Shown here: positions 274-22,700 of the stretch, one piece after another
Layout of the letters: every line of letters starts with the position of its first letter
Numbering within the stretch: the first letter of the stretch is position 1
Assembly (NCBI GenBank): GCA_049968335.1
Contig: JBMFQZ010000013.1
Location: 15,965 to 79,964, forward strand
From: Verrucomicrobiia bacterium
Lineage (GTDB): Bacteria > Verrucomicrobiota > Verrucomicrobiia > Limisphaerales > JAKPVM01
Reading direction: 5' to 3'
Length of the DNA stretch: 64,000 bases
Notes under the pieces: generated by a model
Databases searched by the model: none
Told to the model about the DNA's origin: nothing
What the model saw: the letters and a program-made list of their open reading frames with translations, nothing else
Position numbers and translations under genes: made by a program

Positions 274-1194
274 TTACATTCCTCTTTTCAAACGCTCAAT
301 TCTCTCTTCAAGCGGCGGGTGCGTTGCGAATAACCGGAGAAAACCGCTCTGTTTGCCAGAAATTTTAAATGACTGAAACGCCGCATCATTGCCAGTTGCT
401 GGCTGAGCCTCCAGATTTTTCTCATAAAACCTCCGCAACGCTTCAAGGGCGTTGATCATATTGTAACGCCCGGCAAGTTCAGCGCCGCCAGCGTCCGCCC
501 TAAATTCGCGCCAGCGCGAAAACCAGCAAACAACTATTGCTCCGAACAAAGAAAACACAAACTGGAACAACATAACAAAAAGAAAATAAGCCAGCCCGCC
601 GCCGCGATCATCATCCGAGCGACTCATCGCGCGCGTTACCACAAACGCAACCACCCGAGCTAAAAACATCACAAACGCGTTAATTACACCTTGAATTAAA
701 GTCATCGTAACCATATCGCCGTTTGTGATATGCGACACCTCGTGCGCAATTACCCCTTCAATCTCATCCCGCCGCAAATTCTGCAACAACCCGGTTGAAA
801 CCGCCACAAGCGACCGCGACCGCGTCGGCCCAGTGGCAAAGGCATTGATTTCGTCGCTCTCATAAATCCCGACCTCAGGCATCGTTTCAAGCCCAGCCTT
901 TCTGGCTGTTGAATGGACTATCTGGACAAGTTCCCGCAGCGCCGGGTCTCTGACATCTGGCGGTATAACGTGAACCCCCATCATCCACTTTGCCATTATC
1001 CGTGAAAGCGCAAGCGAGATAAACGCCCCTGCCATACCCCAGATAAGGCAGACAACAAGCAGCGACGAATACATCCCTTGCGGCAATTTGTTTTGTATGC
1101 CTAGCAGACCGAGCACAAGCCCGATCGTTGTCACCACAAGGATGTTTACCAATATGAAAAGCAATACTCGTTTCGCAATGTTGAATGTCTTCAT
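274..1194 (-). CDS. htpX: Zinc metalloprotease HtpX (peptidase family M48)
   Basis: 306 aa with hydrophobic N-terminal and central segments, an HExxH motif (IAHEVSHITNGDM) and a C-terminal FATHPPLEERI, all typical of HtpX. Confidence 0.9.
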   Translation of the reverse strand: MKTFNIAKRVLLFILVNILVVTTIGLVLGLLGIQNKLPQGMYSSLLVVCLIWGMAGAFISLALSRIMAKWMMGVHVIPPDVRDPALRELVQIVHSTARKAGLETMPEVGIYESDEINAFATGPTRSRSLVAVSTGLLQNLRRDEIEGVIAHEVSHITNGDMVTMTLIQGVINAFVMFLARVVAFVVTRAMSRSDDDRGGGLAYFLFVMLFQFVFSLFGAIVVCWFSRWREFRADAGGAELAGRYNMINALEALRRFYEKNLEAQPATGNDAAFQSFKISGKQSGFLRLFATHPPLEERIERLKRGM

Positions 1195-2875: not shown

Positions 2876-3667
2876 TTAATTGTTTTTGTCTGATTTCACA
2901 GGCGCTGTGAAGGTTGTTCCAGTCCGTTGCAACCCGGCTTTCCCCTGCCGTTCAAGTATCTTTTCGCCCCCGGCAAGGATTACAAACCGGCTTATTCCAT
3001 TTGCCTTCAAAGTCCTTGCCATCTCCTGAGCCTTGCCGTCCCCATTGTCCACAATCACAAATAACGGCGTGTATTGCGCGGCTGAAAGCGATTTTTTATT
3101 TATCCCAGAAGCAAACGGCGATTTGACTATCTTTGCCTTTGGAAATTCAGATTGCAAATCGGTCAACGCCGGCGCTTGTTGTTTCCCCGCAAGCGACTTG
3201 TTTTCAACAACAGCCGTTCGCAAATCCACAATCACAGTGTCCGCGCTCTGCAACTTCTTCAGCGCGTCATAAGTTATATACGGCATCTCTTCCCTCGTCG
3301 CCCCGGATTGCTTCGTTGTCGTCCCGATAAATGTTTCCCACGCGGCAAAACCCCCTTCAAGTATCTCGGCTTGAACCTGATTTTTCTTTTTTAAACCATC
3401 TATCGCAGCCGCAGATTTGTTCTCATGCAAACCCTCGTCATAGACTACGACGAGTTTTGCCCCGGGCAACCGTTTCTGGTCGCATATCGCAAGCGGTATA
3501 TTTATAGCGCCGGGAATATGCCCCTTTTGATATAAATCCGTTGGACGAACATCAACAATCGTTACATCCTCGCCAGCGTCAATTTTCTTCTTCAACTCCG
3601 CCGGCGTCATCCCGTTGACATCCAGCAGAATCATTCCAATTAAAAATATTCCAGTTACTTTTTTCAT
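2876..3667 (-). CDS. Secreted tandem rhodanese-homology-domain protein, predicted catalytically inactive
   Basis: 263 aa with a signal peptide. There are two rhodanese-like units (TIVDVRPTDLYQKGHIPGAINIP... and TVIVDLRT...). The positions where the active-site Cys follows the beta strand read LVVVYDEG and LFVIVDNGDG, so Asp replaces Cys in both. Confidence 0.7.
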   Translation of the reverse strand: MKKVTGIFLIGMILLDVNGMTPAELKKKIDAGEDVTIVDVRPTDLYQKGHIPGAINIPLAICDQKRLPGAKLVVVYDEGLHENKSAAAIDGLKKKNQVQAEILEGGFAAWETFIGTTTKQSGATREEMPYITYDALKKLQSADTVIVDLRTAVVENKSLAGKQQAPALTDLQSEFPKAKIVKSPFASGINKKSLSAAQYTPLFVIVDNGDGKAQEMARTLKANGISRFVILAGGEKILERQGKAGLQRTGTTFTAPVKSDKNN

Positions 3668-3673
3668 ATAGTT

Positions 3674-6600
3674 TTATTGAGGTTTAAAGTTTGAAACAGG
3701 ATTTGCCATTTCAATCAACAACACTGCCGCGTTCGGTATTGTAAAATCATTTCCCGAAATTGCGTTGTTCACAACCCGCGCTACAAGCCATTGTCCAGAG
3801 TCCGAATTAAGCATCCTGACCGCGCGCGCGTTTTGCAGCCCGAGCTGTTGTAACAATTTGTATGCCGAATAATTGTTTGGAAAACCTGCATAACTGAGCG
3901 CGTTCACTCCAGCAGGGAGATTGATTGAGGTTGCGTCATTCGCACCAAGGTCAAGAACCGCCTTTGAATCAAACCTCAACCACAACCACATCCCGGCAGT
4001 AAGGTCAAAATTATCTCCGCTTGGCGCCCCGTTTATCCATCTCACTCTCTTTGTCTCCACCTGCGGCAACAACGATGTGTAAACCGTTATCTCATCTATA
4101 TTCGCCGCGCTATGCCACATTGATAACAACGTAAAGGCGTTGCTCGCAAGATTTGCAATCGTCTCCGTCACTACAACAGCGTTCTGATTTTCAAACACCG
4201 CCTGCAACGATGGCAACTTTGCCGTTTTTACAACCGAAAGATTATTCTGGCTTTCAGACCACGCAACAACGCCGTTTCCAATCGATGGCGACGACTTCTT
4301 GCTAATCGTTCGAGTAACAGGTATAACCCGGCGGCTCGGGGCGTGAATCAATCGCAGGTTTGAATTCTCAATCCCGAAAGAATATTCCTCGCAAACAACC
4401 CACTCGCCTTCAATCCTGGGACGAGCCTCATCCTCGCTCGTCTCTGTAAGACGAATCTCTTTTCCGCGCAACAGGTCGTAGCCATAAATATCAACCTCTC
4501 CGTTGCGGTTGTCCTGCCAGACAATCCAATTGTTATATATCGTCGGCTTGTATTGACCAAAAATATTCGTGGTTATCCTTATCAGATTTCCAGTCTCAAG
4601 GTTTTTATAATATATCTCGCCATAACCCGGGTCTCTGAAGTCCTGCCAGACAACCTGTCCGGTGTGAACATCCGGATCAAGTTCATCCTGCGTGGAGGGC
4701 GCAACAGTGAAATATTGTCCGCTCAACAAATTGACTGCCCGCAATTGATACGGCGCTCCGGGCGTAAGAATATTCTTTTCCTGATAAACAACCCACGGCC
4801 AGTCAATCGCCGGATTTATCTCATCAACATCGGGCGTTGAGGTCAATCTTCGCGGCGGTTCGCTTAAAACAAGGTTTTTGAAATAGATATCAAACGAACC
4901 ATTCGGCAAACGTCCCTGCCAGACAACATAACGACCGTCTGTCTTTGGATTTTGTTGATTCAAAGTTCCTTCAGAAACGCGAACGGGCTGCTGATTGACG
5001 CCGTTTAAATCAAGCGCGTAAATCTGCCATGAACCATCGCTCTGGTCTTCCCATACAATCCAACCGCCTCTGGCAAATGCCCTGCCCGGCATACGTTCGG
5101 ACGCCACTGTCTCTTTTGTCTCGCCGGTAAACTCCTCTATCTGGATGAGTCGTGTTATAAAATTTGTCCTCCCAAGTCCATCATACAGAGTGATCCTTGC
5201 AGTATACCAGCCCGGCGGCGCCGTCAAGTTGTTATCCTTTTTACCATCCCATTCAAACGCAATCAAACCGCTCCCGATATTTGTATAAGAAAAAGTCCGC
5301 GTCCTTTCCAACAGGCTTAAATCATATCCGTAAAGCGGATTCACCACCCATGATATCGTGGTCGGCGAGTTGGTCGGTTGCCATTCTCCATTGATCCGTC
5401 CTATTGCGGCAACGGTATTTTGTCCAGAAACAAGATCGGTTAAAACAATCGGTTGACCAATATCTGTCTCCGCCCTGTAATAGCCACTGTTGATTGTCCA
5501 CCTATATTTATCAATGCTCGCTCCAGAAACCGCTAATTGCGCTGTTGCAGAACGCGACGGCGTCGTTATATTTCCAGATAGCTTTGTCACCGGCGCCCCG
5601 CTATCAACAATCCAACTCACTACAACAGCGTTGGACTCCGGTTGATAATCTCCCTGTCGCGCCCGTCCAAGCAAATATAAACTATGCCCGCCCTGCGCAA
5701 GATTTGTCAAAACAAGCTGCGCCTGCGCAGGCAATTCTACGCTCCATCCGCCGCCGTCAAGCCTGTACTTGTAATAATCCACATAATCTCCGCCAATATA
5801 AAATGTCCACTCAGTTGAACGAGTCGGCGATGAGGGTAAATTTGAAACAGTCAAAAAACCTATAACACCGGAAAATATCTCAACATTCGCATTCACCGGA
5901 GCAGGATTTGGCGACGCGCTGAAGAGAATAGACGCCTTGCCCGGTCTCAACGATACAGCGTCTCCAGAGATCACCAGAGACTTTGACGGCTGTTGAATAT
6001 CCGCAAAATTCAAATCCCCCGTTGCGCCAACAACCACAACCGCGGTTTTATCGCTCTCTCGGTTCTGGCTGGTGTCAATCGCGTAATATTTTATCAAATA
6101 TTCTCCCGGGTTGCGCAGTTTAAACGGCAGAGCCGGAATGAACGGCGAGTTCGTTATACTGTAATACATACTCACCGGGCTCTGGTCTTCGCTGATAAAG
6201 TAAATCTGGGTCTCCGGAGTTACATAATATTTGTTATCCGATTCATAAACAGGTCCGGCAAATTTGATCATTGTTGAAGGCGGCGTGGTGTCGTTCCCGG
6301 TTGAACCATACGTGATTGTGTAGCTGTAATTTCCAAGGTCAACAAGGTCAAGTATGTTCAAAAAATCCAACCTCACGTTGTTTACTTTCGTATATCGGGT
6401 ATTTCTCCAGTAATTATTTGTGTTCAAGATTTTTCCGTCGCTTCTGACAATGCTTGCAATAGGCAGTTTGCCCTGCGCAGGGTCGTTTGCCCTCATATAT
6501 CCCCAGCCGGCAATTTCAGCATTCAGGTTCAACGTCAATGTCGCGCCCGCCCCAGCCTCGCCCGCAAGCGTAAAATTAGTCAGCGTGTTAACAGGCAAAA

Positions 6601-7687
6601 TGTTGCCGTTGTTCTCATAAATCGCGTCCGGCAACATATTTTCATCGCGGTCGGTATCCGCGAGAAAATCTTTTATATTATCGCGTCCAGGCAAATCCAC
6701 GAGCACTTCATGAAGGATAAAATGAGCCTGCAACGATTTGATTATAGAGGTTTCTTCCCCGCCAAGTTCAGACGCATGAGTATAAGAGGCTTTAAATTCC
6801 ACAAACTCGCCCGAGAGCGAAGTTATCATATCCCACGCCCCTTTGCGCGCATCGCCCGGCGGTATATCGCCAAGATTTACAAGCAGCGACGCGCTGCGCG
6901 GCGAATCCTGAACTCTCGCCCCGAGCAATTGCGCAATCAACAGCAGACTCTGTTTGTTCTCAACAATCTTTGGCTGTTGCGAATTTATCTTCACGCTCCG
7001 CGCCATTCCGTAACCGGCGTTTTTTACAATGACACCAAGCGTGAACGGTATCGGGCTCTCAATCTCAGGAGTAAACGGGTCGTCCCCTTGAACATCTCGC
7101 GGCTGGAAATAAGTTATTTCAAGCAATGGCTCCGGTTTCACCGTTATTGTATCCGGGATCGCGAACAATACATCAGACGGAATCGGCGCCCCGCGAATCT
7201 TTCCCGAGAGATTGCATCCAACGCGATAGACGACGCCGTTCGCATTAGTGCCGCCGGCTGAAGGTTTGGGAATAATAAACCATTTAACAACCGCCTTGCG
7301 CGTCGGTCCAATTATGCCAGCGCCATTTATATCATTGATATTCTCCAGTTCAGGAGCCCGCACAAAAAACAATGACGACGCGTCGGCAAGCCCGGGCGCT
7401 GTCGCCGTCGCAGGCCTCTCAAACGTCAGTGATGCCGAAAAGTCGGTAATCGGGTCTTCCCCATCGTTATTCACAACTTCAAGCGTCGCTTCAAACCCAA
7501 TCCGTTCAATCGTCAATTCCTGCAATATCTCTATTTTTATCCTTGTGCATAATCCCTGAAATTGTTGTTGTCCAAAAACAAAACCGGACTGTAAAACCAG
7601 CATCAGCAACGCCAGCGCAACGCGGCATTTAATTGAATAGTGTTTCATAACCTTTTTAAAAGTGTTAAATTTTATTAATTTCTTCAT
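3674..7687 (-). CDS. Large secreted protein: CARDB-like beta-sandwich modules, Ig-like modules and a TolB/PD40-like beta-propeller
   Basis: 1,337-aa ORF that begins 19 nt after the giant gene stop. Signal peptide ALALLMLVLQSGFVFG. Modules resemble PFTLGVIVKNAGYGMARSVKI. Repeated blades carry the WIVWEDQ / YVVWQGR / WVVYQEK / QVVWQDF / WIVWQDNRNGEVDIYGYDL pattern. Confidence 0.6.
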   Translation of the reverse strand: MKKLIKFNTFKKVMKHYSIKCRVALALLMLVLQSGFVFGQQQFQGLCTRIKIEILQELTIERIGFEATLEVVNNDGEDPITDFSASLTFERPATATAPGLADASSLFFVRAPELENINDINGAGIIGPTRKAVVKWFIIPKPSAGGTNANGVVYRVGCNLSGKIRGAPIPSDVLFAIPDTITVKPEPLLEITYFQPRDVQGDDPFTPEIESPIPFTLGVIVKNAGYGMARSVKINSQQPKIVENKQSLLLIAQLLGARVQDSPRSASLLVNLGDIPPGDARKGAWDMITSLSGEFVEFKASYTHASELGGEETSIIKSLQAHFILHEVLVDLPGRDNIKDFLADTDRDENMLPDAIYENNGNILPVNTLTNFTLAGEAGAGATLTLNLNAEIAGWGYMRANDPAQGKLPIASIVRSDGKILNTNNYWRNTRYTKVNNVRLDFLNILDLVDLGNYSYTITYGSTGNDTTPPSTMIKFAGPVYESDNKYYVTPETQIYFISEDQSPVSMYYSITNSPFIPALPFKLRNPGEYLIKYYAIDTSQNRESDKTAVVVVGATGDLNFADIQQPSKSLVISGDAVSLRPGKASILFSASPNPAPVNANVEIFSGVIGFLTVSNLPSSPTRSTEWTFYIGGDYVDYYKYRLDGGGWSVELPAQAQLVLTNLAQGGHSLYLLGRARQGDYQPESNAVVVSWIVDSGAPVTKLSGNITTPSRSATAQLAVSGASIDKYRWTINSGYYRAETDIGQPIVLTDLVSGQNTVAAIGRINGEWQPTNSPTTISWVVNPLYGYDLSLLERTRTFSYTNIGSGLIAFEWDGKKDNNLTAPPGWYTARITLYDGLGRTNFITRLIQIEEFTGETKETVASERMPGRAFARGGWIVWEDQSDGSWQIYALDLNGVNQQPVRVSEGTLNQQNPKTDGRYVVWQGRLPNGSFDIYFKNLVLSEPPRRLTSTPDVDEINPAIDWPWVVYQEKNILTPGAPYQLRAVNLLSGQYFTVAPSTQDELDPDVHTGQVVWQDFRDPGYGEIYYKNLETGNLIRITTNIFGQYKPTIYNNWIVWQDNRNGEVDIYGYDLLRGKEIRLTETSEDEARPRIEGEWVVCEEYSFGIENSNLRLIHAPSRRVIPVTRTISKKSSPSIGNGVVAWSESQNNLSVVKTAKLPSLQAVFENQNAVVVTETIANLASNAFTLLSMWHSAANIDEITVYTSLLPQVETKRVRWINGAPSGDNFDLTAGMWLWLRFDSKAVLDLGANDATSINLPAGVNALSYAGFPNNYSAYKLLQQLGLQNARAVRMLNSDSGQWLVARVVNNAISGNDFTIPNAAVLLIEMANPVSNFKPQ
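4250..5090 (-). other. Beta-propeller region (6-7 'VWQD...DIY' blades) of the 1,337-aa protein
   Basis: Periodic W-[IV]-V-W-[QE]-D motifs about 45-55 aa apart. Coordinates are approximate. Confidence 0.55.
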
Positions 7688-7706: not shown

Positions 7707-10700
7707 TCACTTGTTAATGTAAAATGCCTTCACAAGTTCATCAGGCGAAAGTCCGCACCTGTCGCGAACAAGCACGCCGTTTGCAAAGAACGCCTGGTCC
7801 TCCTTCAACACAAGTGAATAGACTGTTTGTTTATCTTTCAATTTAGAAACAGACCTTATAACCGTGTGCTTACCATCAGGCTTCATTAACCAATCGCCTG
7901 CTGTCAATTGGCGCGCAAGCGTCCACCCCTTGCCATCAACCCAAAACGCGTGATCGCCAGTTGCAATGACACTCTTCTGTTCCGACCCTTCGCTGCCAAA
8001 TTCAATCCTGTATAACTCATCGCTCGTTCGCTGGGTTACGAGTCTGACCTGCGCCTTTTCTTTCTCTGAATACCCTGTCCTCACCCAATCGCCTATCTTT
8101 ACCATCTGTATCGGTTTGGTCTTTCCATCCGCCATCAATACCGATGTCCCTTCCACAAAACAGACGGGACTGTAGAAACCATAACCTGAACCAGTTGAAT
8201 AACCGCCACCGCCACTGCCACTACCTGGACCTGTCAACTGTTGCGCAAGACAAGTAACAAGTCCCATTGCAAAACTGATAGGCCATGGCACGCTCGGACA
8301 GGGCGACGGCAAGAAACCTAACGGACTGAACCCGGGCGAACAGAATAGCGAATAGACTACAACAAGTCCTGCCGCCGCTTTTAACGCTCCTCGTAAATCG
8401 GCGCACTGTCCATCCCCGCTAAACCTTGCGGCGATCGTCGCGATATCTTGCAAAAATTGGGCTAACCCGACAAGTCCACCGGTTACACAATCTGCATAGT
8501 CTTTCCCATCAAACTTTGGTTTTGCCCCGCTTTTTGCGGCTACGTTAATCCTTGCCTGATTTGTTCCACCGATATAGACCGTCTGCAACGGTACCTCAAC
8601 CGATTCCTGCGGCAATAAGACAGGGATATAATCAATCAGCGGAACAAGTGTTGCATTGGGTAACTCAGTCCCTTCAATGATCACATCATTCAACTGCAAT
8701 AATCCGGCGTTTTTAACTATCGCGATTATCGTTGCCTCAAACCCAGGCGGCACGTTTTCATACTTCACCATCGGCGGCGTTACAACAAGCACAGGAACCG
8801 GAACGTGCGTTTCAAATGTCTGTTCAATCTTTATCTCGTATTTATCAGTAAACGGCACCGGCTCAACGGTAAAATTGACAGTAACAAGATTTCTGGACAG
8901 CCTGACGCTCACAAGTTGCGTCTGGTCAGGTTCAACCGTAACAGTCCCGCTCATCGGACTATGCCCGGGCGCAGTAACAAGATATGACCAGTCGCCTTCC
9001 TGAAGGTTTGTAATCGTGGTATATCCGTTTGCGTCGGTCGTAGAGGACAACTCTTGATTCAAAACCAGATTCTTTATTCTCACAGTCGCGTTCGGCACTG
9101 GGTAAGTTAAAATATTATCAACAAAGAACCTTACGTTCCCGCTCTTGCTTGATGTTACAAGGGTAAAGATGTTTATCTTGAATGTCCCCGTAAGATTCGT
9201 TCCACCGATGACGAGTGAGTCCTCGTGATATTCAAGTGATGTATCTTGCGGCGGCGCAGCCACAACCACGAATGTATTTGACCCACCAACTGGGATATCT
9301 GGAAGGTGAATCAAACCATCCTGCGCAATCGGAAGGTTAACTCTGACCCACCCAGTATTCGTGGGCGGTATTATATATGCGCCAGATAAATCGTTCATCC
9401 CCCGATTTACCACCGTTATTGAGCGGCTCTTGAAATCGCCCCTGTTAACGCTCATCTCAACATAACCAACAGCAGGATCAACAACAGATAACACCGGGAC
9501 TGCTGGCAATAACGTTACATTCCCAACAACAGTTGCCGATGCCCCTTCCCCAGACCTCACAATAAATTCAACTATTGCATTGTCCGGAGCATCCACCGCA
9601 GCGCCAAGGCTCATCTGTAGTGACCTCCTCTCCCTTGGACCCAAAACGAAATTCTCAGGTATCCCGACACTACCTGTTACAGTACTTATTGGCACACTAT
9701 TGGTACCCTCCATCCTATAAGCCCTGAATTCATAACCGAAATTGGACATCTGTTCATCACCCGGATTGACCAGTGTAACTGAGAAGTCTATAGAACCATT
9801 CTTTGACATCCGTATGTCAAATTGCTGCGGTGTCACATAAATTCGGTAAACCTTTATCTCCACTTGATTCAATACATCAAATATATCCGGATGCGCAGCC
9901 CAGATTTTTATCGCTCCGCTTAACCCCCTCTGCGGCTCATAAATAAACTGATAGTTTCCACTCTCATCAGTTACTACATCCTTGTAGAAACGATAACCCT
10001 GCGTGAAGAATCCGATCTTCAACGGCGAATTCGGTTTTGGTTGCCCGGTAGCGCGGTCAATTGCTTGACCGGTGATGGTCACGTTCTCGTTGTTTGCATA
10101 GAACTGTTTATCGGTATTCGCAGTACCATAATAAGGTGTCTGAATAAGCGCGCTAACAAGCGAACCAGTTAACGGTCCGGAAATCGTCTCGTCGCTTACA
10201 GCAATCTTGTTGTAAATCTTCTCAACAACCGCCTCAATATACGCTGCATTTGTCCCAAGCGATGCCGGTATCAAAACATTGCTAACCGTTATCAATTTGA
10301 ACGATTCTGACGGTATCCTAACAAACGCCCGTCCGTCCGGTGCCATCATAATTCCCGCAGGCATTCCACTGTATTGAACACGATTCACCTCCTGACCAAA
10401 CATATTCTTAACCGATATATACAAATCGCCCGGGTCATTCCCCTGATTCCTTGATAACACAACGTCAATAGGAACATCAGAACGATTGTAAATCTTCACA
10501 TCAAACGAAGCCAATCCACCACTAACCGGCTGTTCATTTGCAGACATCTCAATCATCACCCGCGATGGACGATAATTGTCAAAACTAAACGCTTTCTGGT
10601 ATGTGACAGTTGTTGCAGGATCTGGTGTTGCTTGAACCACTTTTACTAAAAATGCCTGTCCATATTGTTCCCGTGCCGATGGAAATACTACAAACCGCTC

Positions 10701-13700
10701 TATTCCGGAATTTGTCTGCAATGTGATAGGCAAATTAATCTGTTTTGTATAACTCTCTTTTGTCGCAAGAGTGCGAAGCAGTTGGATATTATTAAGCGGC
10801 ATTCCGGATTCATTCGCCAAGTTCGTAACCGATAACCTAAATTCATCAAAATATTTTGTTACAAGCGTGCTATTTGTTTGCCCGCGTCCAACCATCAAAT
10901 TCACCGATATAGGATAAATTGTAACAGACCTTGGCGGTCCTTCGGCGTTCGTTGAGTTAAGCGCGCGAACTTCATAAATCACAGCCTGATTACCTATCGC
11001 AAATGGGTCAGTATAAACCCTACTTGTTAATGGTTGAGCGTTCTGTTTAATCCCGTTTCTGTAAATATTAAATGCGACAGCGGTCGGGTCTGATACCTCC
11101 CATCTTAATTGCGGCGCATTCTCAACTACCACATCAATTCTATCCACAGCGCCGACAAGTTGTTCAACCGTTACAACATCGCTAAGCGCTTCATTCCCCA
11201 CGGCGTCAACAGCCGATACCGTGTATGAATTCAACCCGCGCGGTGGTCTATCTATAATGGTCGTTTCAGATGTAGTCGTCCGTATCAAACTATTGTTCCG
11301 ATATATGCGGAATTCGCTTGGATTCTCGCCCACTACTTTTTCCCAGGTAATAACGACACCCTGCGCAGTTAATTGCGCTACCACATTTGTCGGCGCCGGC
11401 GGCGGCGTTCTGTCAGAAACTACAATCCTTACAGCCGATGGCGTGCTCTCCGCACCGCGTCTCAACGCTGTAACAACATACCGATAAGAACCATCGGCAG
11501 GCGGCAAGTCAACATAACTGTTCGTCGCAATACCATCGGCAACAATGACAGTTGGCGGAACAGCGTTTGAACCTACTTCTGAATAAATACGATAGCTCTC
11601 CGCGTTCGTGACACTATTCCAATTAAGTTGAATATAGCCACCGGGTTTTGCCACCGCCATTAGTCCGGTCGGCGCCGCTGGTGGAGTCGGCGTTTCAGTA
11701 TTGTAAACCTCTAAAAACGCGCCAGATTCAATATATTGACCGACATTATCAAGCGCATCTCTTGCTTGCATTGTGAATGAGCCAAACCCGCTGCCCATTG
11801 ACGGATCTAATCGCAAGATGCCGCTCCAATTTGTGCCCGAACCACTCAATGGGATAGTAACATTTGTCCCAATCGGTGGCTTGAATGCGAGCACCGGCGT
11901 TGTGTCCGGCTTCTGCGGTTCACTCAAAGTGAGGTTCACCGAGACATCAACCTGATTGGTTATCTGAACAGGCGCAGCCGGCGCGCACACAATTCTGCCC
12001 ACTGGTGGCGTCACATCTACAATGAACGGCGCTCCTTGCGGTGTCCCTTCAAACGTATTCCCCGCTAAATCAATCCCCGCAACTCTAAATTCCGCTAATC
12101 CAGAGCGGGTGATTGGCGTTATATTCAAATCTGCAACAAAACTATTTAATCCCATCCCCGGAGCGAGAGTGATTGCAATTGGTTCGCCCCCAGCGTATTT
12201 GATGGTCAAATTCGGAACCCCTGTAAGCGGTTCAGAAGCCGTAACTGTTATTTGAACAGTTCCCACGCCTACCGGCGGCGTCTTGTTAAATGCGATGCTA
12301 AACTGCGGCGGCGTTGCATCATAATTATAAGTGATTAAGTCCGAAACCGCGCTCTCATTCCCTGCTTCATCATATCCAACAACCCCAAAATAATACCGAC
12401 CGTCCGGTATCCCCTTCAGCGTATAATCCATCTTCGTCAATATACCGCTCTGTCCGCTTGCCTGTTGAGGCGTGGTAAATTGATTTGTATGCCATAACAC
12501 TCTGAACCTCGTGGCTCTTTCACCTTCCGACTTATATCGCCAGCTTAAATACAATCCATCACGCTGACTATAAAACGGATCGTTCATTATAACCGCTGCA
12601 GGCGGTCCAGAATCAACAACCACAACGCAAGGAACACCGCTCGCGCTGCCAATCTCATCAAACGCGCTCGCAACAATGTTGTTTGCGCCTTCTATCAATG
12701 CGATATTCGTGAACGCAAACGAACCGTCTGCCGCTGCCTGTGTTAAACCTAACGTCGCGCCGCCCCTTGTTAAACTCACGCTAATGAATGGTTCTGCCGT
12801 ACCGGTAAAATTCATCCTGTTGCTTGAAATTACAATCCCACTCTGAGGCGAAGTTATCACTGGCGCCGAAGGTGGTTCAACAGCGATAATTACATTCCGT
12901 TCAAGCACGGCAAAATTGGCAAAATTATCCCGCGCCACGAGTTTGACCCGATGAATTCCGTTTGGATAATTTCTAACATCAACCCGTTGAGAATAACTCC
13001 CACCAGCAACCGAACTTATCAAATTATTGTCTATGTAAAACTCAATCGCAGACATTCCAAGCGTCGCCGTAGCAGTGCCAGTCACAGTTAATGGACGCTT
13101 CAATATCATTCCTTCTGTCAGGTTAAACGATGTGATAACTGGACCAGCCGTGATGTAATTCACAGTGATACTGATAGGCGGATTTGTGTTTCCTGTAACA
13201 CTACGAAATTGCGCGTAAATTGTCTTTTCCCCGCCCCCTTCGCTAAGCATGAACGAAGCAATCGGCTTAAATGGTTCAAACGGTGTCAACGGGAATAACC
13301 AGTTTTCGCTAAAGCGCATAGACTCTGCTGTCCGACAAGCCACTTCAATGTTAACACTCCGCGAACCAACCTGTGTCAAATTGTTCTGAATTCTAATCGC
13401 CGGCGTCAACAGTGGCTCGCCAGTCAGATATTCATTATAATTTACCGTGCCGGAAATGGTGTTTGTTATGTCTGTTAAGTCAGCGCTCCCCCACCAGTTC
13501 TTTGTTGCAGTAAATGCAGCCGCTCCTTGTTCAACCGCATTGGTAATGTTGTTCTTAATTACAGAATTGGTTATAAACATAGTTGCGCCTGCGCCTGCAT
13601 AAATACCGACAGGATTATAAGCAATCAAACCATCCCTTGTGCTCAATGCAGCACTGCCTGAAACAGCCAAACCAGCAACGCTATTGTAAACAGTCGTCAA

Positions 13701-16700
13701 TGCGTCAACCGTCGGAGAGCATCCATTTACAAACAATCCCTTGCCATATTTAATAAAGACGTGTCTTAAAGTTGAGCCGCCAGCGCCAGAATTTAATTCA
13801 ACACCATCCCAATCGCCTGCTTGCGGCACGCCACCCTGAACATCGTTCACGGATGTTAAGACAATCGGATCAAGCGCGCTTCCATTTGCAACTAATGTCC
13901 CTTGTCCAACAACAATCTTCGTCCCGGGCATAAACCGTAATACCGTCCGCGGCGAAATCGTAACAGTCGCCCTGTTTGTTATTACAATTGTTTGATAAAT
14001 GACTAATTCCTGCCCCGTTTCGCCTATGGTTAAATTATTAGTGACAACACCGGCGTATGGATCGCGCCAGACTACTGTGCCTACTGCTGGATTAAACTCC
14101 CCATTTACATTCACGCCCACAACTGCAAAGTAATAGGTTGCTAATCGGTTAAGATTTGAAACTACAACCGAACGGTCGTTTACACCCAACACCTGCCGCG
14201 CTGTCAATCCGCTTACATTTCCAAAATTATTTGTCTCGTAATAGAGCCTGAATCCGCCAAAACCGATTAACTCCGATGTTGAATAATTTTGCCACGAAAT
14301 CCTCGCGGCATTCGCGCCAACAGGAGCAATTGTAATTGCTACCGGTGGCGGAAGCGCTGGTCTTAATATGAATGATAGCGGTGTAACCTCTTGAATAGCG
14401 TTCCCGGCAACATCAACAGCAACTACCGCAACATAATAAGTAGTATCAAGTTTTAAATTATAATAGGTATAACTCCTTGCCGAAGCAGATAACCATGCAA
14501 CATTATTAAGTCCAGCAACCGAGTTGAAATTGTTCGTGCTGATATAAACTCTGAATCCAGCGAGGTCTTGTGGCGCTGCGTAACCCTGCCACGAAATCGT
14601 AGCGGAAACGCTATTTGAAGCGCTTAAGACAAGAGTTGGCGCAGACGGCGGTGTCGCATCAACTACGAATTTCAAAATGTTCGTAGTCTCAATCGTAAGT
14701 CCGTTTGTATCAGCCGCACCAGAAATATAAACATAGTTCGTTCCATCCGTCCCTGCTCCAAACACAATTCCCGGTAATACAAATGTATCATTGCTTCCTG
14801 TGCGATTAGTCCAATAACCAATCTGGCTAAAGATTGCCTGCGCTACCCCTACCGGATTCGTAACCACTATCAGTGGAGCAACGTTTGCATTCATCGTGCG
14901 GTCAAATTGAAGAGTCAGAACAAAATTGCTTGTCGCAGGCACTGGCGCCTGATGGCTTACTAATATGTTTGTAATCACCGGCAATATACTGTTTGCGTCA
15001 TAATAAGCCACGTAATTCATATTTGACGGATCAAGCGTGCTGAAAGTCTTTGAAAATGCGTTTGAATTGTTCAGAAATACAACGTTGAGTTTGAATTCCT
15101 TAAACCTGTAAATATAAGGCGGATTTGTAATGCTCAACGGCGCCGATATTGTAGCAACCTGACCATTTGAGTATGTCCCGCTGCCAGTAACTGTGGCAAG
15201 CCCCTGCGGAACTGTTGCCGTTGTTACATAATGAACCGGATTCGCTTCATTGTAATTTGCCACTACAACCCGATTGCTCTTAACCACAACAACTAATTGT
15301 GTTGAAGTGCCAATTTGCGCCCCACTCTCACTCCAGTGGCTAAACAGATAGCCCTGCGATGGCACAGCCACTAATGTATTTGTTGATCCATAAACATATA
15401 CACCCTGTCCTAACACGGTTCCTCCAGATGGCGGATTGTTTGAGGCGCTTAACTGATAACTCGGCAATCCAAAGTTCGCCACAAGATTCCTGCTGCGGAT
15501 AATCGTAAACGTGTAATTTGTACTCGCGCTCTGAAATACTCCATTTTCAAGCCAGTTTACAAACCGATATGGCATAACATTTGTGTTCGCAATGGCGCTC
15601 ACCGTAACCGATGACCCAGATGGATAAGACCCGCCACCGCTCACAAACCCCGCATCTGGCGGATTCACCGTTATATCAACATTATACATCTGTGTAATCG
15701 CAAAAGTCGTTGTGAACAAATTCTGCTCTGCGCTTGCGTGCCCGATCTGGTTAAATTCATAAATATCGTTCCGCGAGTCTGTGATAACTATGACTGAGAA
15801 ATTCCCTGCCTCTGTTATTGCAACTGGAAGATTATTTGTCACGCCACCGTTTACTGGTAAACTCTCGCTAACCGTTCTTTCAAGATTGAGCAATACCGTG
15901 CCCAAAGTCTCATTCTTCACAATCACCCGCTCCTTGAATCCGCTGGCAGCAACCCCGGTTCCACGGTTAACCGTAATCCACTTAATATTATAAACAGAGC
16001 CAGATTGCGGTGTTATAACCTGCAAGCCTTCAACCACAATATCAGGATATGGCGCAAGATTGATCAAGAATGTGTTATCGCTTGCAAGCGTATTATCCCC
16101 TTCAAGCACAAACTCATTCACCGCGTTAAACGCGTCCGCTTGCACAATCAAGTAATAATTCCCAAAAACACCTTCGGGTATAAGAGCGCTATTTGTGACG
16201 CTATAACTTGAACCGTTGCCTACAATCCCTGTATGTGGAATAACGGCAAGCAAAATATCATCCGCATCGCCGTAAACTTTATTTAGAGAAATAACAACCC
16301 TGTCAGACCATGACGAAACATCGGTAGGCGAATTCCCTGCATTTACAACTTCGTAAGAGAATGTAATCGGACTGCCACTCATAGCCGCATTCGTCGGCGG
16401 ATTAACACTCGTTACAACCAGATTGGCAAAATTAAATGCCCCGCTTGGCGCTACCTGAATGTCAATCACATATTCCTCCTGCAACCCAGCGTTCGGTGTA
16501 TCTGAATTGACCTTGATATAGTAATTGCCAGTCTGTGTTATTCTAACCTCAGCAACCCCATCGTTCGGACGCGACTGCCCTGACTCTGCCATATAAACTC
16601 CAACCGCATTATAAACCCCGACAACAGGCGCAAACTTGCTCAACACTGGCTGCCGTACTGAAACATAAATCGTGTATCCGTTGCTGACTGTCCCAATATT

Positions 16701-19700
16701 ATACCAGTCAACATCTCCAACCGTTCTGATATATCCCGCGACATTGCCAGAATAATTGCTGCCGTTTCTGACTAAACCTATTGCATTTGCCAACGCCAGC
16801 GAGTCGTTAGCTTCCTGTTCAATCTGTTGCGATTCGTCTGCAACTACCACTTTGATCCGATACTCTCCCTGATAACTGCTGTTTGCCGCAACCCTGATGT
16901 AATAAGTCCCATTACTTTGTATCGTCACAACCGCTGATTGACCAAGCCCGTTGTTGTCAGAATTGAATGAGGTTACTGTCCCGCCATCTACATTTTCCAA
17001 ACGAATTGACAACGATGAACTGGATGGATTGCCCGGGTTTTCAGTACACACAACAACCTTCTGACCGGCTTGCGCGTCAAAACTCCAGTAGTCAATATCG
17101 TTGCCAGTTCCAATCGTTCCCCGACAGAATCCCGACTTCAATCCCGCAATTGATTCAATAAACGTCACCGGCGTCGCCACGCTGGCTAAATCGTTTGACC
17201 TATTTTCAATCGTAAATCCATCAAGATTGGTTATTACAAAATAACGGGTAACAGGAATAACCTGGTTCAAATATTTGTCCCTCAAAAGCGTAGTGGTCGT
17301 TAGCCTGTAATTTCCCGGCTGCAGCGGTCCGTCAACAACCGTTAGCGTCAAATTCGTCCCGCCACTATATTGCGCTGGCACTAAGTTGTAATACTCATCG
17401 TCTGCAGTATCAAAAACACCGTCCAATCCAGCAGATTGAACCTTGAATCCGTTAAATGGATCATTCGGATACGGATCAACCACATCAATAAAACCATCGC
17501 CATCAGAATCGCTCCCGCTAAATTCAATCACCCCATATAAAGAAGAGTTATATGATAAATCATTCCATAAACCTGATGCCAGCATTTGAGCATAATCCTC
17601 GCCGCCGCTGTTGTTCGGCTCGCCTGTGTTCCAGTTTAAATAAGTTACCGGCTCTCCGCTGACCCACCTGAACGTCCCTTCCTGCAACTCATCCGTCAAT
17701 CCAATCCAGACCGCCGACGATTGCGCAAAATTGAGTCTCACAAACTCATTTTCAGCCGCGCTGTTTATTGTAACTAAATGCCCCCCGCGACTCATCGCAT
17801 AATACTCAGCATCAACCCACCTCATCGCCGAATCTGTTAATATATAATTATGCCCGCCAAAGGTCTTTAACCGGCTCAAAATATTGAACTCCGGATTCAA
17901 CTCCGAACTGAATCCTAATAAAATCCTGTCAACAACAGAGGTTGTCGCTAACCCGCCCGACGGCAACGAAGACGAAACAAGCGCCAGCGCCTGCGTCTTA
18001 ACCAGTTCAATATTTAACAAATACTGCGCGGCTATACCGTTTGGCCTATTATTTGTAACCGTCGTGCCTGCCCACAACGCGCCATTCAAAATCGTTCCGT
18101 TCGCCCCCGTTGGACTTGCATCGGTGAGAACCCGCCCCGCCCCCTCGTCAAACCGCCAGTAACCAACAAGCCCAGACTCCGTCCCGTTGAGCCTGTTGGT
18201 CATTGTCGCCTGTATTTCTCCCGCGCTCCTTGCAACATTCCAAACCCGCACCTCATCAATATTTCCATACCAGTACTCACCATATCCGCTATATTGTCTG
18301 CCAATGCGGAATTCTGTCGTCTGAGACGGGTTCGGGATTGCCGACCCCTTCACCGCCGCCAGAATACCGTTTGTATATAAATAAGTATTGGAAGCAGTCT
18401 TAACTACTGCAATATGAACCCATTGATACATCGGGAATAGCGCGGGCGTCGTTCCCCAGCCATCGCCAGCGCGAATATACTTATTATAATCGTAACCTAA
18501 ATAAAACGCGTTGCCGCCGCTCCCCTGTGAAATTACCTCTCTGTAATTAGAAGCGCTTTCCGCATACACCCATGCCTCTACCGTAAAATCGCCGCTTGAA
18601 GGTATAACACCGCTACCAAACGTCACATAATCATCAACCCCATCAAACCTTAATGAATATCCTGCCTGACCAGACAGGCTAATCGCCGGTACATTCCCTC
18701 CGTAGAACATCCTTATATAATAATTGCCATCCCCGCCTGCCGGCGCCGTCCAGCTCAAATTAGTTCTATCCAATGTATCAGAGGTCGCAATCAATGTCCC
18801 GCTTTGGTTATATAACTCAACTGCCCCGCCAAATCTCCCGTTAAACGGATATAACCAGTTCAAACTAATCGTTGTCCCAGATTCAACATTCGTTAATTTA
18901 TAAAAATCGCTTGTCTCGTAACTGCCGATATAACCGTAAACCTTCCCATTCAATTTTTGAGTCCCTTGATATAACGCAACCACGTTGGCTTCGCCTGCGC
19001 TATTATTATTTTCCAATTCTACTTGAATATTAGATGGAATTAGAGATACTCTGATTCTATATTCGCCGTAATAGTTATAATATCTACTTACTCTAATCGC
19101 ATATCTACCGCTTGAAGTTGCTGTTATCGTCGGTATCTGTCCAAAGCCAGAATAATCTGAATAATAATTATATATTACATTCCCTTCCGGGTTATATACC
19201 GAATAATATAGGCCGCTACTACCGATATTGTTAGGCGTCTCCATCGCAATTGAAATCTTGTCGCCACCGTTCGCGTAGAAACTCCAGAAATCTACATCAG
19301 ATGAATCCGATAACTTGCCGCGCCCCATACTTACTCTAATTCCGCTACCCAATTGGTCTTCAGTTATTAATCCAGTTATATTTCCAAGCAATATCCGCAG
19401 ATTATCTGTATAATAATCCGCTACCGCAATATCCATTGCGCCGTCATTATTAAAGTCTGCTACCGTTGCGGCTCTGCAATTCATTGAATAAGTCAAAATT
19501 GAGTTAAACTCGCCATTCCCAGTATTCTGCATAACTATTAATCTATTAACGCTATATTCTGGAACTATTATATCCTTTAATCCATCATTATTAACATCCG
19601 CAACTGTCAACCAGTATGTATTATTAAGTCCGGGCGAGTATGATTTCCTGGAACTAAATGTGCCGTCTCCCGCGCCTTTAAATATTTCAACAACACCATA

Positions 19701-22700
19701 CTGCGTGCTTACAACAACAATGTCCTTTATATTATCATTATCTATATCGTCAACAACCGCATAAATAGGCGACCTTCCCACCGCAATAAATGAAGGTCCT
19801 CCAAATGTCCCATCGCCATTCCCCAATCTAACCGCAATATTATTTGCGCTTTGATTAACGCTAATTAAGTCCAACTTACCATCGTTGTTTATATCCTTAA
19901 TCTCAACGCATCGTGTTCCGGTACCAGTTGTTATATCTCCTATTTTCAGGAATGTGCCATTCCCATTACCTTTAAACAGGCTAATATTTCCACCATTATA
20001 GTTTGCTGTAACTATGTCAAGCAGACCATCGTTATCAATGTCTCCAACCTTTACATCTAATGGAGACTGACCTGTTATATTAGTTGAATAAAAGTTAAAT
20101 GTCCCATCTCCATTGCCTGTTAATATATATAATTTACTATCATTATAATTAATCGCGGCGATTTCTAACTTATTATCTAAATTAAAGTCAGCTACCGCGC
20201 AACTTTGCAATGAATAACCAATCGAGTAATTTGTAAATAGATTAAATGTTCCATCCCCATTTCCCTTAAACAGATTCATATTGCCAGAATAACACGGCAT
20301 AATTACATCCATTTTGCCATCATTATTAAAATCGCCCTTGGCAATATAATTTGGCATATCGCTCGCTTGAATCACCCCGCCAAATGAGAATGATCCATCA
20401 CCGTTAGTCCTCGCAATCAATCCAAGCGGCGAAGCAGAAATTAACAAATTATTATTTCTCGTTTCATTAACATATCCGGGAACGCCGCTAACTGTAAAAT
20501 ACCTGACATAGTTTGTCCCTAATGTGTTATTCCCTGTATCGGCGAGATTTGAACTGACGATAAATCGGTAATTACCCGGTTGGAGCGGACCGTCCACTAT
20601 AGTATAGTTCGCTGTAAGTCCAGAAGTATAACCCGAATATACAGTATAAACCTCATCATCCGCTGTTCCGAACTGTAAATCCTGCCCAGCATTTCTTAAT
20701 TCATAATTTCCCGAATTTGTAACCGTTACAGGACCCATATCTTCCGAATACGATACAGTAAATGAGTTTATAATATCGGTTGTCGTCCCGTTGTTAGTTG
20801 GAAAACTGTCCCCGGTTATATATGGCGGTATTAAATCCGCAGTTTCTACATTTAACAAATATGAAGCATAAATGCCTGGCGCTTTGTAATTTTGCGGCGC
20901 TAACGCAATCCAGTATATCGTTCCATTTATATTGCCATTGAATCCATTAGTGCTTGAATCTAAAACCGTATTACCGCTTGATTGATTCATACTATAGTAC
21001 GCAACAAGACCATCTTCTACCCCAGCTAATGATTTAAACATATTTGACACTATTCCGTCTTGAGTTAATGACTTATTCCACAGCCTTACTTCAGCCATTA
21101 ACCCGTTAAATGATGAGGCATAGTTGCCTCTTCCAATCCTTAATACTTCATTATTGTCCACGTTTGCCGCAGCTTCACTATTAGTATTAATCCCTGCTAA
21201 ATTGCCATTAACATATAGATAGAATATTCCATTGCTTCTAACCCCCGCTATATGATACCAGTTACCCGGCGTAAGTAGTCCCGAAGTAACCGCTGAATTA
21301 CCGGATATTGTGCTATAAAAATTCACTTTAAACAATGGCTGTATATCCCCATAAGTGTTTATTTCAAGCGCCCAACCTGGATAATTCTGATAATAGGATT
21401 TGCTAAGAATTACATTAGCGCTATTCCCGCCCAGCGCTAATGGCGGCACATAAACTAACGTCTCAACACTAAAGTCATTAGTCCCAAAGTTCAATTTGCT
21501 ATTATTTGGCGTCGTTATTTGAGCGCCGTTGATGTTAATTCCATTCCTAAATGTATCAGTGAAACCATACTGTCCGCTCGCTACCCTCGCGTAAAATGTT
21601 GAATCTCCTCCGACAGGTATATTATAAACAATATTTGTTCCGGTAAGCGGTGAATTGGTCACAAGTTGTCCCGCCTGATTATATATTTCAAAGACTGATG
21701 GAAATCTATAATCTGCCGGCTGCAACAACTTCATCATAATAGATGAACCATACGATAGGTTGCCAATTCTATAATAATCACCCTCAGAATCATTGATATG
21801 TATAATTCCGCCAATATTTGCCACCCTCTTATTTCCGACTAAATTGAAATTAAGCGCGTTTGCCGAACTTATACTTCCATTATTCTCAGACTCAATCTGT
21901 ATATTTGATCCGTATTTAATTAAATTAAATCTGTATTCGCCTCTATAACTATAATTATAAGACACCCGCACATAATATCTACCACTAACTGGTAACACTG
22001 TAGCCAACTGTCCATATCCCCTATAATCTGTGTAAAACGAACTTATCTCATTGCCACTTGGATTAAGAATACTATATCTTAATCCAGAATTATATGGAGA
22101 ATTCGGATTTTCAGTTGCTATTATAACCTTTTCACCAGCAATTCCTTGGAAACTCCAGAAGTCTACATCATTGTTATCTACTAAATTGCCGCGCCCTATC
22201 ACGCTTGAATATCCCGGTGCAATACTACCAATAAGTATTGATTTATTACCAAACAGTATTGTTACACTATTCCTATAATAATTTGCAGTAGCAATGTCTG
22301 GTATTCCATCAGAGTTAAAATCGCCTACGCAAACACTTATGTCATCCGGATCGTTCGGTATACTATACACACTCTTACCCTCAAAACCACCCCCTGCCTT
22401 CCCAAGCATCACCACCACACTATCATATTGATATGTCGGCACTACTATATCTAACCTCCCATCACCATTCAAATCCGTTAGCATAAACTGAAACGCATTG
22501 TGCAAACTATCCCCATAACTGTTCGCACCACTAAACCCTCCTAACCCGTCTCCATAAAATACCTTAATCGTCCAGTTGCTCGCATCCAGCGCCACTATAT
22601 CTAACTTCCCATCCCCATTCACATCCCCTAACCTCACAAATATACAATTCCCACCTACACTCACACCCCCACCATCACTAAACCCGCCCACACCATCCCC

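Follow-up and report, generated by a model that had tools for sequence, protein, structure and literature searches.

In a 64,000-nt stretch of DNA from a Verrucomicrobiia bacterium (contig JBMFQZ010000013.1 of assembly GCA_049968335.1; this whole stretch is called the window in the following), the minus strand carries a giant open reading frame (ORF) for a protein of 6,836 amino acids that ends in a Hint domain. From the conservation of its residues and of its gene neighborhood, we somewhat favor the view that the last 151 residues of this protein would act as a competent autoprocessing module, similar to the C-terminal domain of Hedgehog (HhC), on one subunit of a four-gene extracytoplasmic system of Verrucomicrobiota. 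An earlier reading of the letters, made without database searches (the sequence-only reading), had presented the Hint domain as a feature peculiar to one protein. Instead, the giant Hint-ended proteins are a large orthologous family and not a one-off, their genes stand in a conserved four-gene cassette, and variants of the cassette without the Hint domain exist as well. The novelty lies in the architecture, in a signature Cys two residues beyond the position of the terminal Asn (+2 Cys), in the giant orthologous family and in its fixed partners, while this type of chemistry is already known. The coordinates of all features are listed in Table 1.

The C-terminus as transcribed in the sequence-only reading matched the ORF translation exactly. 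It reads ...GPGSGSGGGGYSTGSGYGFYSPV/CFVEGTSVLMADGKTKPIQMVKIGDWV...ATGDHAF...FFANGVLVRDR-CGLSPDELVKAFYINK-stop, with the slash at the predicted scissile bond; the Hint domain starts after Val6685 with CFVEGTSVLMADG, and FFANGVLVRD is followed by a single Arg, the tail and the stop codon. The Hint fold claimed for this region was corroborated by profile comparison and structure prediction, which agreed with each other. The Pfam profile PT-HINT (PF07591) scored 31–32 bits for the isolated C-terminus, above the gathering cutoff of 27.7 (E = 1.7e-7 for the module), and 27.5 bits when the domain was scanned within a 3,333-aa half of the giant protein. PT-HINT matched 28 of 30 family members, with a best E value of 5e-14. 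Hint_2 matched weakly (E = 0.059 for the window protein; 15/30 members, best E = 3.8e-7), and AXH profiles also gave weak matches to 15/30 members. A single-sequence search of the PDB returned the Tetrahymena bacterial intein-like (BIL) domain BIL2, the Hint domain of 8w20 and the C. thermocellum BIL. When a profile of 30 family sequences was used, the E values were 3e-20 for the Hint domain of 8w20, 1e-19 for Tetrahymena BIL2 and 7e-17 for the C. thermocellum BIL. AlphaFold with an alignment of these 30 sequences gave a pLDDT of 94–98 across the Hint domain, while prediction from the single sequence gave a pLDDT of 40 and no usable model. The top Foldseek matches of the model were BIL domains (6y75/6tmm, 2lwy; E = 1e-11), followed by mini-inteins and Hedgehog 1at0 (E = 1e-6), and the target-normalised TM-scores to BILs and mini-inteins were 0.75–0.88. 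Alignment to HhC by hhalign had a probability of 93% and covered only the N-terminal half. The last ~134 residues before the tail form a genuine Hint domain, well beyond chance, which belongs by fold and profile to the PT-HINT/BIL branch of the Hint superfamily. It has the Hint fold, the N-terminal Cys nucleophile and the block B T-x-x-H of this superfamily. Its length is 134 aa by alignment to 8w20 and BIL2, one residue less than first proposed.

In Hint domains, the N-terminal Cys (Cys1) together with Thr and His of block B performs an N-S acyl shift, and the penultimate His and the terminal Asn serve C-terminal cleavage. We counted the conservation of these residues in 73 aligned C-termini, which had been picked by a pattern that required the +2 Cys, and in an unbiased set of 84 family ORFs, which were defined by genomic position alone as ending just upstream of a homolog of the 1,337-aa partner protein P1337. 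Cys1, His6756 and Trp6765 were invariant in the 73 aligned C-termini, as was Cys6821, which the selection required. Near-invariant were Thr6691 (72/73), Thr6753, Trp6759 (69/73) and Gly6822 (66/73). Cys1 and the block B His, reported as intact by the sequence-only reading, were invariant across ~90 relatives. The aligned C-termini are only 30–59% identical, and the invariance of Cys1 and His together with the near-invariance of Thr at this level of identity argues for selection for catalysis.

The C-terminal motif behaved differently. With VLVHN of 8w20 and N143 of BIL2 as alignment references, D6819 fell at the position of the terminal Asn and R6818 at that of the penultimate His, in line with the Arg-Asp noticed before. 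The Asn position was D43/E12/Q10 among the 73 C-termini and never N; in the position-defined set, it was D65/E8/Q8/H3, again without any N. The penultimate-His position, which serves Asn cyclization, was H39/Q14/R11 among the aligned members, a relaxation to Q or R in roughly one third of them. The +1 residue (R6820 in the window protein) is variable (L, M, R, S, and others). It is followed at +2 by C6821, the first residue of the tail, and this Cys was retained throughout the position-defined set. Cys1 itself was preceded by G in 35, A in 13, V in 6 and Pro in 5 of 73 members. The tail is 2–64 aa long across ~90 members (mode 16, median 18) and poorly conserved in sequence; its last residue is usually K or R, and the motif E-V-[A/S/T/V]-[K/R] is frequent at this end. 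No toxin or other domain was present C-terminal to Hint in any of the ~90 members. The proposed lack of C-terminal cargo therefore held for the window protein, in which the 16-aa tail is followed after 19 nt by the P1337 gene, and for the family.

The module is preceded by a flexible linker and a helical region (Table 1). The six Cys that had been placed upstream of Hint were correctly counted, but only five of them (6577, 6605, 6626, 6640, 6656) lie upstream; the sixth is Cys1. C6577 was conserved in 65/71, C6605 in 59/73 and C6656 in 69/70 members. C6605 was substituted in 14 of 73 aligned members, by Ser in 10. An obligatory disulfide between C6577 and C6605 was not supported, since C6605 is lost in these 14 members while C6577 is retained. 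The stretch that had been described as hydrophobic is predicted to be helical, but its hydropathy is only moderate and it is not clearly transmembrane. With a maximum Kyte-Doolittle value of 1.53 over 19 residues, which is below the usual threshold, a role of these helices as transmembrane anchor was unsupported. This role was further weakened by a few members in which an acidic low-complexity linker stands in for the whole helical region.

Word-indexed searches gave almost nothing useful, whether the query was a single sequence or a profile. The family came to light only when the last 275 residues of the giant protein were used as query in an exhaustive HMMER scan. The scan yielded 9,208 Hint-containing proteins, and 87 of the best 150 share the C-terminal ending of the window protein. 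Many of these 87 relatives are 3,000–7,200 residues long, and the match ends 2–60 residues from their C-terminus. Named members belong to Verrucomicrobiota, including the cultured Pedosphaera parvula Ellin514 (WP_007412597.1, 5,666 aa), to Bryobacteraceae and to Bradymonadia. When one genome of each species was scanned, 44 family loci (L006–L049) came up, nearly all of them in Verrucomicrobiota of several orders, and Desulfatibacillum alkenivorans DSM 16219 and a Deltaproteobacteria metagenome-assembled genome (MAG) were also among the results. The closest relative, with 84% identity in the C-terminal module, is from a Verrucomicrobiota MAG. When the giant protein of the window was compared by BLASTP to 17 full-length relatives of 3,600–7,200 aa, a C-terminal body of ~2,400–3,250 residues was colinear with 35–49% identity. 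This body begins at window residue ~3,590 or ~4,410 and extends to the end, and the N-terminal half differs among the relatives. NCBI records name the family proteins hypothetical or after their other domains, and our literature searches found no description of the giant-protein family, of its xCG signature or of the four-gene cassette.

In the window, the genes for the giant protein, P1337, a 263-aa protein and a 513-aa protein (P513) follow each other in this order on one strand, with gaps of 19, 6, and 14 nt. As judged by eye, the giant protein has an N-terminal Sec-type signal peptide, and all three partners have signal-peptide-like N-termini. The cassette order was identical around three distant relatives. 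By tblastn, it was present in every genome locus that had the family Hint and enough downstream DNA, and generic Hint matches in other phyla were without the partner genes. We also performed the reciprocal test with P1337 homologs as the start in an independent metagenome collection. A Hint module was directly upstream of P1337 in 58 of 66 loci, and downstream of P1337 a gene for the rhodanese-like protein was found in 61 of 67 and P513 in 46 of 51 loci. P1337 was the next gene in all family loci, and no small immunity-like gene followed the giant gene. The 263-aa partner consists of two rhodanese-like domains. The position of the catalytic Cys is D21/G12/C7 (n = 42) in domain 1 and Asp in 39/41 in domain 2, and the window protein has Asp at both positions (VVVYDEG, VIVDNGDG). 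Because the catalytic Cys is mostly replaced by Asp or Gly, this partner is probably not a sulfurtransferase; it is more probably a binding module than an enzyme. For the same reason, we rejected the idea that it supplies persulfide chemistry to the thioester.

From the fold, the conserved motifs, the absence of cargo, the family and the gene linkage, we infer the following chemical steps, together with their compartment and the final nucleophile. Cys6686, aided by Thr6753 and His6756, would perform an N-S acyl shift at Val6685-Cys6686, which would result in a thioester. Cys6821 would then either take the acyl group as a branched thioester or latch Cys1 by a disulfide until reduction occurs. 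No succinimide-type C-terminal cleavage and no splicing would be expected because the terminal Asn is systematically absent. A nucleophile would finally resolve the thioester, so that the protein of ~6,685 residues would end at the Gly-rich linker, and the 15-kDa Hint domain with its tail would be discarded. The pattern of conservation, with Cys1, His, and Thr kept, the penultimate His relaxed, no Asn and a Cys after the fold, indicates that the chemistry would go no further than its first or second step. Cleavage restricted to the N-terminal side, as proposed by the sequence-only reading, appears reasonable given the intact acyl-shift residues and the absent Asn. The small residues that commonly precede Cys1 (G, A, or V in the counts given above) may likewise be taken in favor of self-cleavage. 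The signal peptides of the partners suggest that the chemistry would be extracytoplasmic, in a compartment that offers no ATP and in which a self-contained thioester would be of use. Sequence by itself does not separate water from another nucleophile as acyl acceptor.

Two loci bear on this last point. L076 (2–5860) and L134 (1–5904) are intact, tightly packed cassettes whose giant proteins lack Hint and retain the conserved stalk and the helical region. The protein of L076 ends in ...VNGQN-C-EDTPDYDTGSP, with its Cys aligned to Cys1 and the stop 11 residues later, and the protein of L134 ends in an acidic tail. Both look like proteins that are made already "processed", and the end of the L076 protein has the appearance that would be expected of a giant protein that needs no processing, which we counted for self-cleavage. 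These cassettes indicate that the system does not structurally require Hint and that a covalent ligation is not indispensable. They slightly favor simple maturation.

Several points weigh against autoprocessing as outlined. The argument for cleavage is drawn from conservation alone. Cys6821 is at +2 and neither at +1, as in inteins, nor aligned to the Asn, as is C143 of Hedgehog. In the inteins that have been studied, the acyl shift is disfavored by Val at −1, which the window protein has, and by Pro at −1, which 5/73 relatives have. An oxidising periplasm could trap Cys1 in a disulfide. Finally, the limitation of the Asn position to D, E, Q, and H might reflect a residual C-terminal reaction, and inteins ending in Asp or Gln reportedly splice.

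Among the known systems, we infer that the module would work most like HhC, yet it is not a member of this group by sequence. In both cases, a secreted protein ends in the Hint domain, which has nothing downstream to release, Cys1 and T-x-x-H are kept, the terminal Asn is missing, and a second strictly conserved Cys stands at or just beyond the end of the Hint fold. The family consensus also has a junction of the G/CF type. HhC lacks the Asn, and its second conserved Cys, C143, ends the fold and accepts the acyl group as a branched thioester, which makes it the equivalent of C+1 of inteins (PMC12054796). C143 also forms a disulfide with C1, which needs to be reduced first (PMC3051819, PMC12054796). 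The Hedgehog analogy of the sequence-only reading is thus strengthened by the second Cys as a candidate counterpart of C143, in addition to the missing Asn. It does not extend to the base D46, which has no equivalent in the family, or to a sterol-recognition region (SRR), since only 15–16 residues follow the Cys. Furthermore, the second Cys of the family is located two residues beyond the position equivalent to Asn, while that of HhC is at this position. PT-HINT and BIL are nearer to the family sequence than Hog is. The module is also bacterial, is part of a protein of ~6,700 aa and is linked to three partner genes.

BIL domains resemble the family in being Hint domains of secreted bacterial proteins outside conserved housekeeping genes, and they are its best structural and profile matches. 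PMC7765530 and PMC7664689, summarising Amitai et al. 2003 and Dassa et al. 2004, state that BILs mostly cleave rather than splice. In these two articles, A-type BILs are described as having a conserved C-terminal His-Asn and no downstream nucleophile, and B-type BILs as having the N-terminal motifs, lacking the C-terminal motif and retaining N-terminal cleavage. The family never has the Asn of the A-type, and its motif pattern matches that of the B-type. Hint_2, which we take to be the probable Pfam counterpart of B-type BILs, matched weakly, as given above. The family differs from BILs in its invariant +2 Cys, since BILs are described in PMC7664689 as having no downstream nucleophile. BILs were also described in hypervariable regions, while the family Hint stands at the end of a long conserved body and comes with a constant set of partner genes.

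PT-HINT domains sit immediately before the toxin that they release, with immunity genes after it (PMC3482391). PT-HINT is the best Pfam family for the module and also ends very large secreted proteins. It keeps His-Asn, toxin and immunity genes (e.g., P0001, P0002), and the family has none of these. From class 1 inteins, the family differs by the lack of the C-terminal His-Asn, by the Cys at +2 instead of +1 and by its "C-extein", which is a poorly conserved 16-aa tail and no functional C-extein. Other systems of C-terminal processing are the C-terminal domains (CTDs) of the type IX secretion system (T9SS), which are removed by PorU, the LPXTG signals of sortases and the self-cleaving intramolecular chaperone domains of phage tailspikes. 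These share with the family a constant C-terminal module, variable N-termini and dedicated partner genes, as well as removal at maturation as predicted for the Hint module. They have no sequence or fold relationship to it, and in the family the substrate would carry its own protease or transpeptidase in the form of the Hint thioester.

The thioester may also be resolved by ligation in the manner of Hedgehog, which we regard as a possibility of lower rank. A lipid headgroup, a glycan or lipopolysaccharide (LPS), a peptidoglycan amine, another envelope molecule or a cassette partner, such as a residue of P1337, would serve as nucleophile, and the giant protein would be anchored covalently by its C-terminus without sortase and without ATP. 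The catalytic residues are conserved as expected for such a reaction, Hedgehog provides the precedent (PMC12054796), and the three exported partners are strictly co-inherited. The flexible Gly-rich linker ahead of Cys1 would present the thioester, and the variable N-terminus with a constant C-terminus resembles systems with C-terminal sorting domains. However, the residue aligned to D46 is the variable Q6729 (T13/S12/E11), and the poorly conserved tail of ~16 aa is the only extension, with nothing like the binding region of the SRR. The cassettes without Hint imply that ligation would not be essential everywhere, and an internal Cys as acceptor would yield merely a labile thioester link.

P1337 was of special interest as a candidate acceptor for such a ligation. 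Its homologs have 43–86% identity, 265 positions are at least 93% conserved, and this conservation exceeds that of the Hint module. Ig-like and TolB-like beta-propeller domains were indicated by Pfam and NCBIfam, with no further family match, and no relative was found in the PDB by sequence or profile search. The predicted mature N-terminus A/QQQFQG[LVW]C[AS]RVKI is strikingly conserved (residues 41–47 corresponding to window 7547–7567; loci L005–L138). Its Cys47, ~7 residues into the predicted mature protein, is the single invariant Cys of P1337 and an "orphan" with no consistent intramolecular partner, which speaks for the ligation. Six solo P1337 genes (L088, L090, L092, L094, L100, L109), all from metagenome Ga0272440, also keep Cys47. 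They are surrounded by housekeeping genes (uroporphyrinogen-synthase-like, phosphoglycerate-kinase-like), and no giant, Hint, rhodanese or P513 gene is adjacent at these six loci. P1337 therefore seems to have a role that needs no adjacent giant, rhodanese or P513 gene. Since Cys47 is equally conserved there, its candidacy as Hint-specific acyl acceptor was weakened, and this also counts against ligation. Two other ideas on P1337 were discarded. A reversed, CGEQ-like Cys-Gln thioester in QGxC was ruled out because the −3 position is not conserved, and the N-terminal domain showed no significant similarity to the last beta-sandwich of the giant protein, of which it might have been a homolog.

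It appears unlikely that the giant protein is held at the surface by Hint and tail and is shed on demand. In this case, a disulfide between Cys1 and Cys6821 would keep Hint inactive until it is reduced, for example when the protein meets a reducing niche or exchanges thiols with a partner. Self-cleavage would follow and free the ectodomain; until then, the protein would be held non-covalently or by a disulfide to a partner. Two invariant Cys flank the Hint fold in an extracytoplasmic setting, as deduced from the signal peptides, and the C1-C143 disulfide of Hedgehog must be reduced before processing (PMC3051819, discussed in PMC12054796). The length of the tail is conserved and its end is usually K/R, so that it may be a candidate docking peptide. 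Against this, the tail sequence is poorly conserved, a binding function of Hint or tail is conjecture, and in the rhodanese-like protein, the sole candidate for a redox role, the catalytic Cys is mostly missing.

AXH domains have a fold related to that of Hint but no protease activity. That the family Hint is, by analogy, a structural or docking module that remains on the mature protein seems to us quite improbable. The loss of the canonical C-terminal His-Asn, the weak AXH profile matches to 15/30 members and the conserved co-occurring partners, which could bind the domain, would fit. The invariance of Cys1 and block B His and the near-invariance of Thr are, however, hard to explain without catalysis, and the Hint-less variants imply that the remaining assembly can do without the domain.

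A degenerate PT-HINT that has lost its toxin, or an atypical splicing of the 16-aa tail with Asp, Glu, or Gln in place of Asn, is the least credible of the explanations, in spite of PT-HINT being the best Pfam match, of the typical relatives P0001 and P0002 with C-terminal toxins and of the reported splicing of inteins that end in Asp or Gln. Some 90 members across phyla retain a short tail and the xCG motif and none has cargo, P1337 is always the next gene in place of a small immunity-like gene, the nucleophile is at +2 and not at +1, the Asn position is in some members His, which cannot cyclise, and PT-HINT is by definition located just before the toxin (PMC3482391).

The family provides a large and well-defined test case, with Pedosphaera parvula Ellin514 and Desulfatibacillum alkenivorans DSM 16219 as cultured members. 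To our knowledge, the role of bacterial Hint domains with nothing downstream has so far been largely a matter of speculation. The second invariant Cys may parallel the C143 relay that was recently demonstrated in Hedgehog. If autoprocessing is confirmed, it would constitute a route for maturation, anchoring or shedding of giant surface proteins of Verrucomicrobiota, define a conserved extracellular system of four proteins and offer a bacterial model for the transition from inteins to Hedgehog. A further use of the module could be as a natural tag that cleaves at its N-terminus and generates a thioester. If the thioester is ligated, diderm Verrucomicrobiota would have a self-contained surface anchoring that needs neither ATP nor sortase. 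This would be a bacterial counterpart, and possibly an evolutionary forerunner, of Hedgehog cholesterolysis with a two-cysteine relay.

Table 1. Positions of the giant gene, its C-terminal module and the cassette partners in the window.
Feature	Position (nt)	Strand	Basis or remark
Giant ORF, 6,836 aa	7707–28217	minus	ORF translation; C-terminal end is the Hint domain
Constant C-terminal body, ~residues 3590–6836	7710–17450	minus	BLASTP colinearity
Helical Cys-containing region, residues 6570–6663	8229–8510	minus	3–4 predicted helices, pLDDT 55–70
Gly/Ser/Tyr-rich flexible linker, residues 6664–6685, ending in Val6685 (−1)	8163–8228	minus	
Predicted scissile bond Val6685/Cys6686	8160–8165	minus	Cys1 invariant, 73/73 aligned members
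Hint domain, residues 6686–6819 (134 aa)	7761–8162	minus	Pfam, PDB profile, AlphaFold, Foldseek
Block B T6753-G-D-H6756	7950–7961	minus	Thr 70/73 (Ser in the other 3), His 73/73
R6818-D6819 at the His-Asn positions	7761–7766	minus	Profile alignment
Cys6821-Gly6822 (+2/+3)	7752–7757	minus	Cys 84/84, Gly 78/84 by position-defined count
16-aa tail CGLSPDELVKAFYINK	7710–7757	minus	Stop codon 7707–7709
Partner 1, P1337, 1,337 aa, exported	3674–7687	minus	Starts 19 nt past the stop codon of the giant gene
Cys47 codon of P1337	7547–7549	minus	Sole invariant Cys of the P1337 family, 39/39
Partner 2, 263 aa, exported, two tandem rhodanese-like domains	2876–3667	minus	
Partner 3, P513, 513 aa, exported	1320–2861	minus	Without family assignment; fourth cassette gene

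Downstream of its signal peptide, the giant protein comprises FG-GAP, LamG, PPC, C-type lectin, CARDB, InlB-B, fn3, Big and CarboxypepD_reg domains. To call it an adhesin is a guess from this domain content. The giant gene contains a direct duplication of 1,029 nt with 96% identity (window 22233–23261 and 25077–26105, offset 2,844 nt). The two copies correspond to residues ~705–1047 and ~1653–1995, an FG-GAP beta-propeller module. It suggests that the variable half has recently undergone duplication or recombination within the gene, and it is at the same time a potential assembly hazard.

A gene for an HtpX-type M48 membrane protease (window 274–1194) is located on the same strand 125 nt downstream of the cassette. 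It adjoins the cassette in no other locus and is probably unrelated to it. Among the proteins of the HMMER scan, P0006, P0007, P0037, P0096, and P0147 have 3–8 tandem Hint domains that are arranged head to tail as ...VLVHN-K-CF.... The spacing from the Asn to the next Cys in these arrays equals that of the xCG motif in the giant-protein family. Four cassette contigs (L009, L010, L020, L042) are labeled as MAGs of Akkermansia muciniphila, Bifidobacterium, Bifidobacteriaceae or Saccharimonadales. Apart from these, the cassette occurs in Verrucomicrobiota. These labels probably reflect mis-binning or mislabelling rather than the true hosts.

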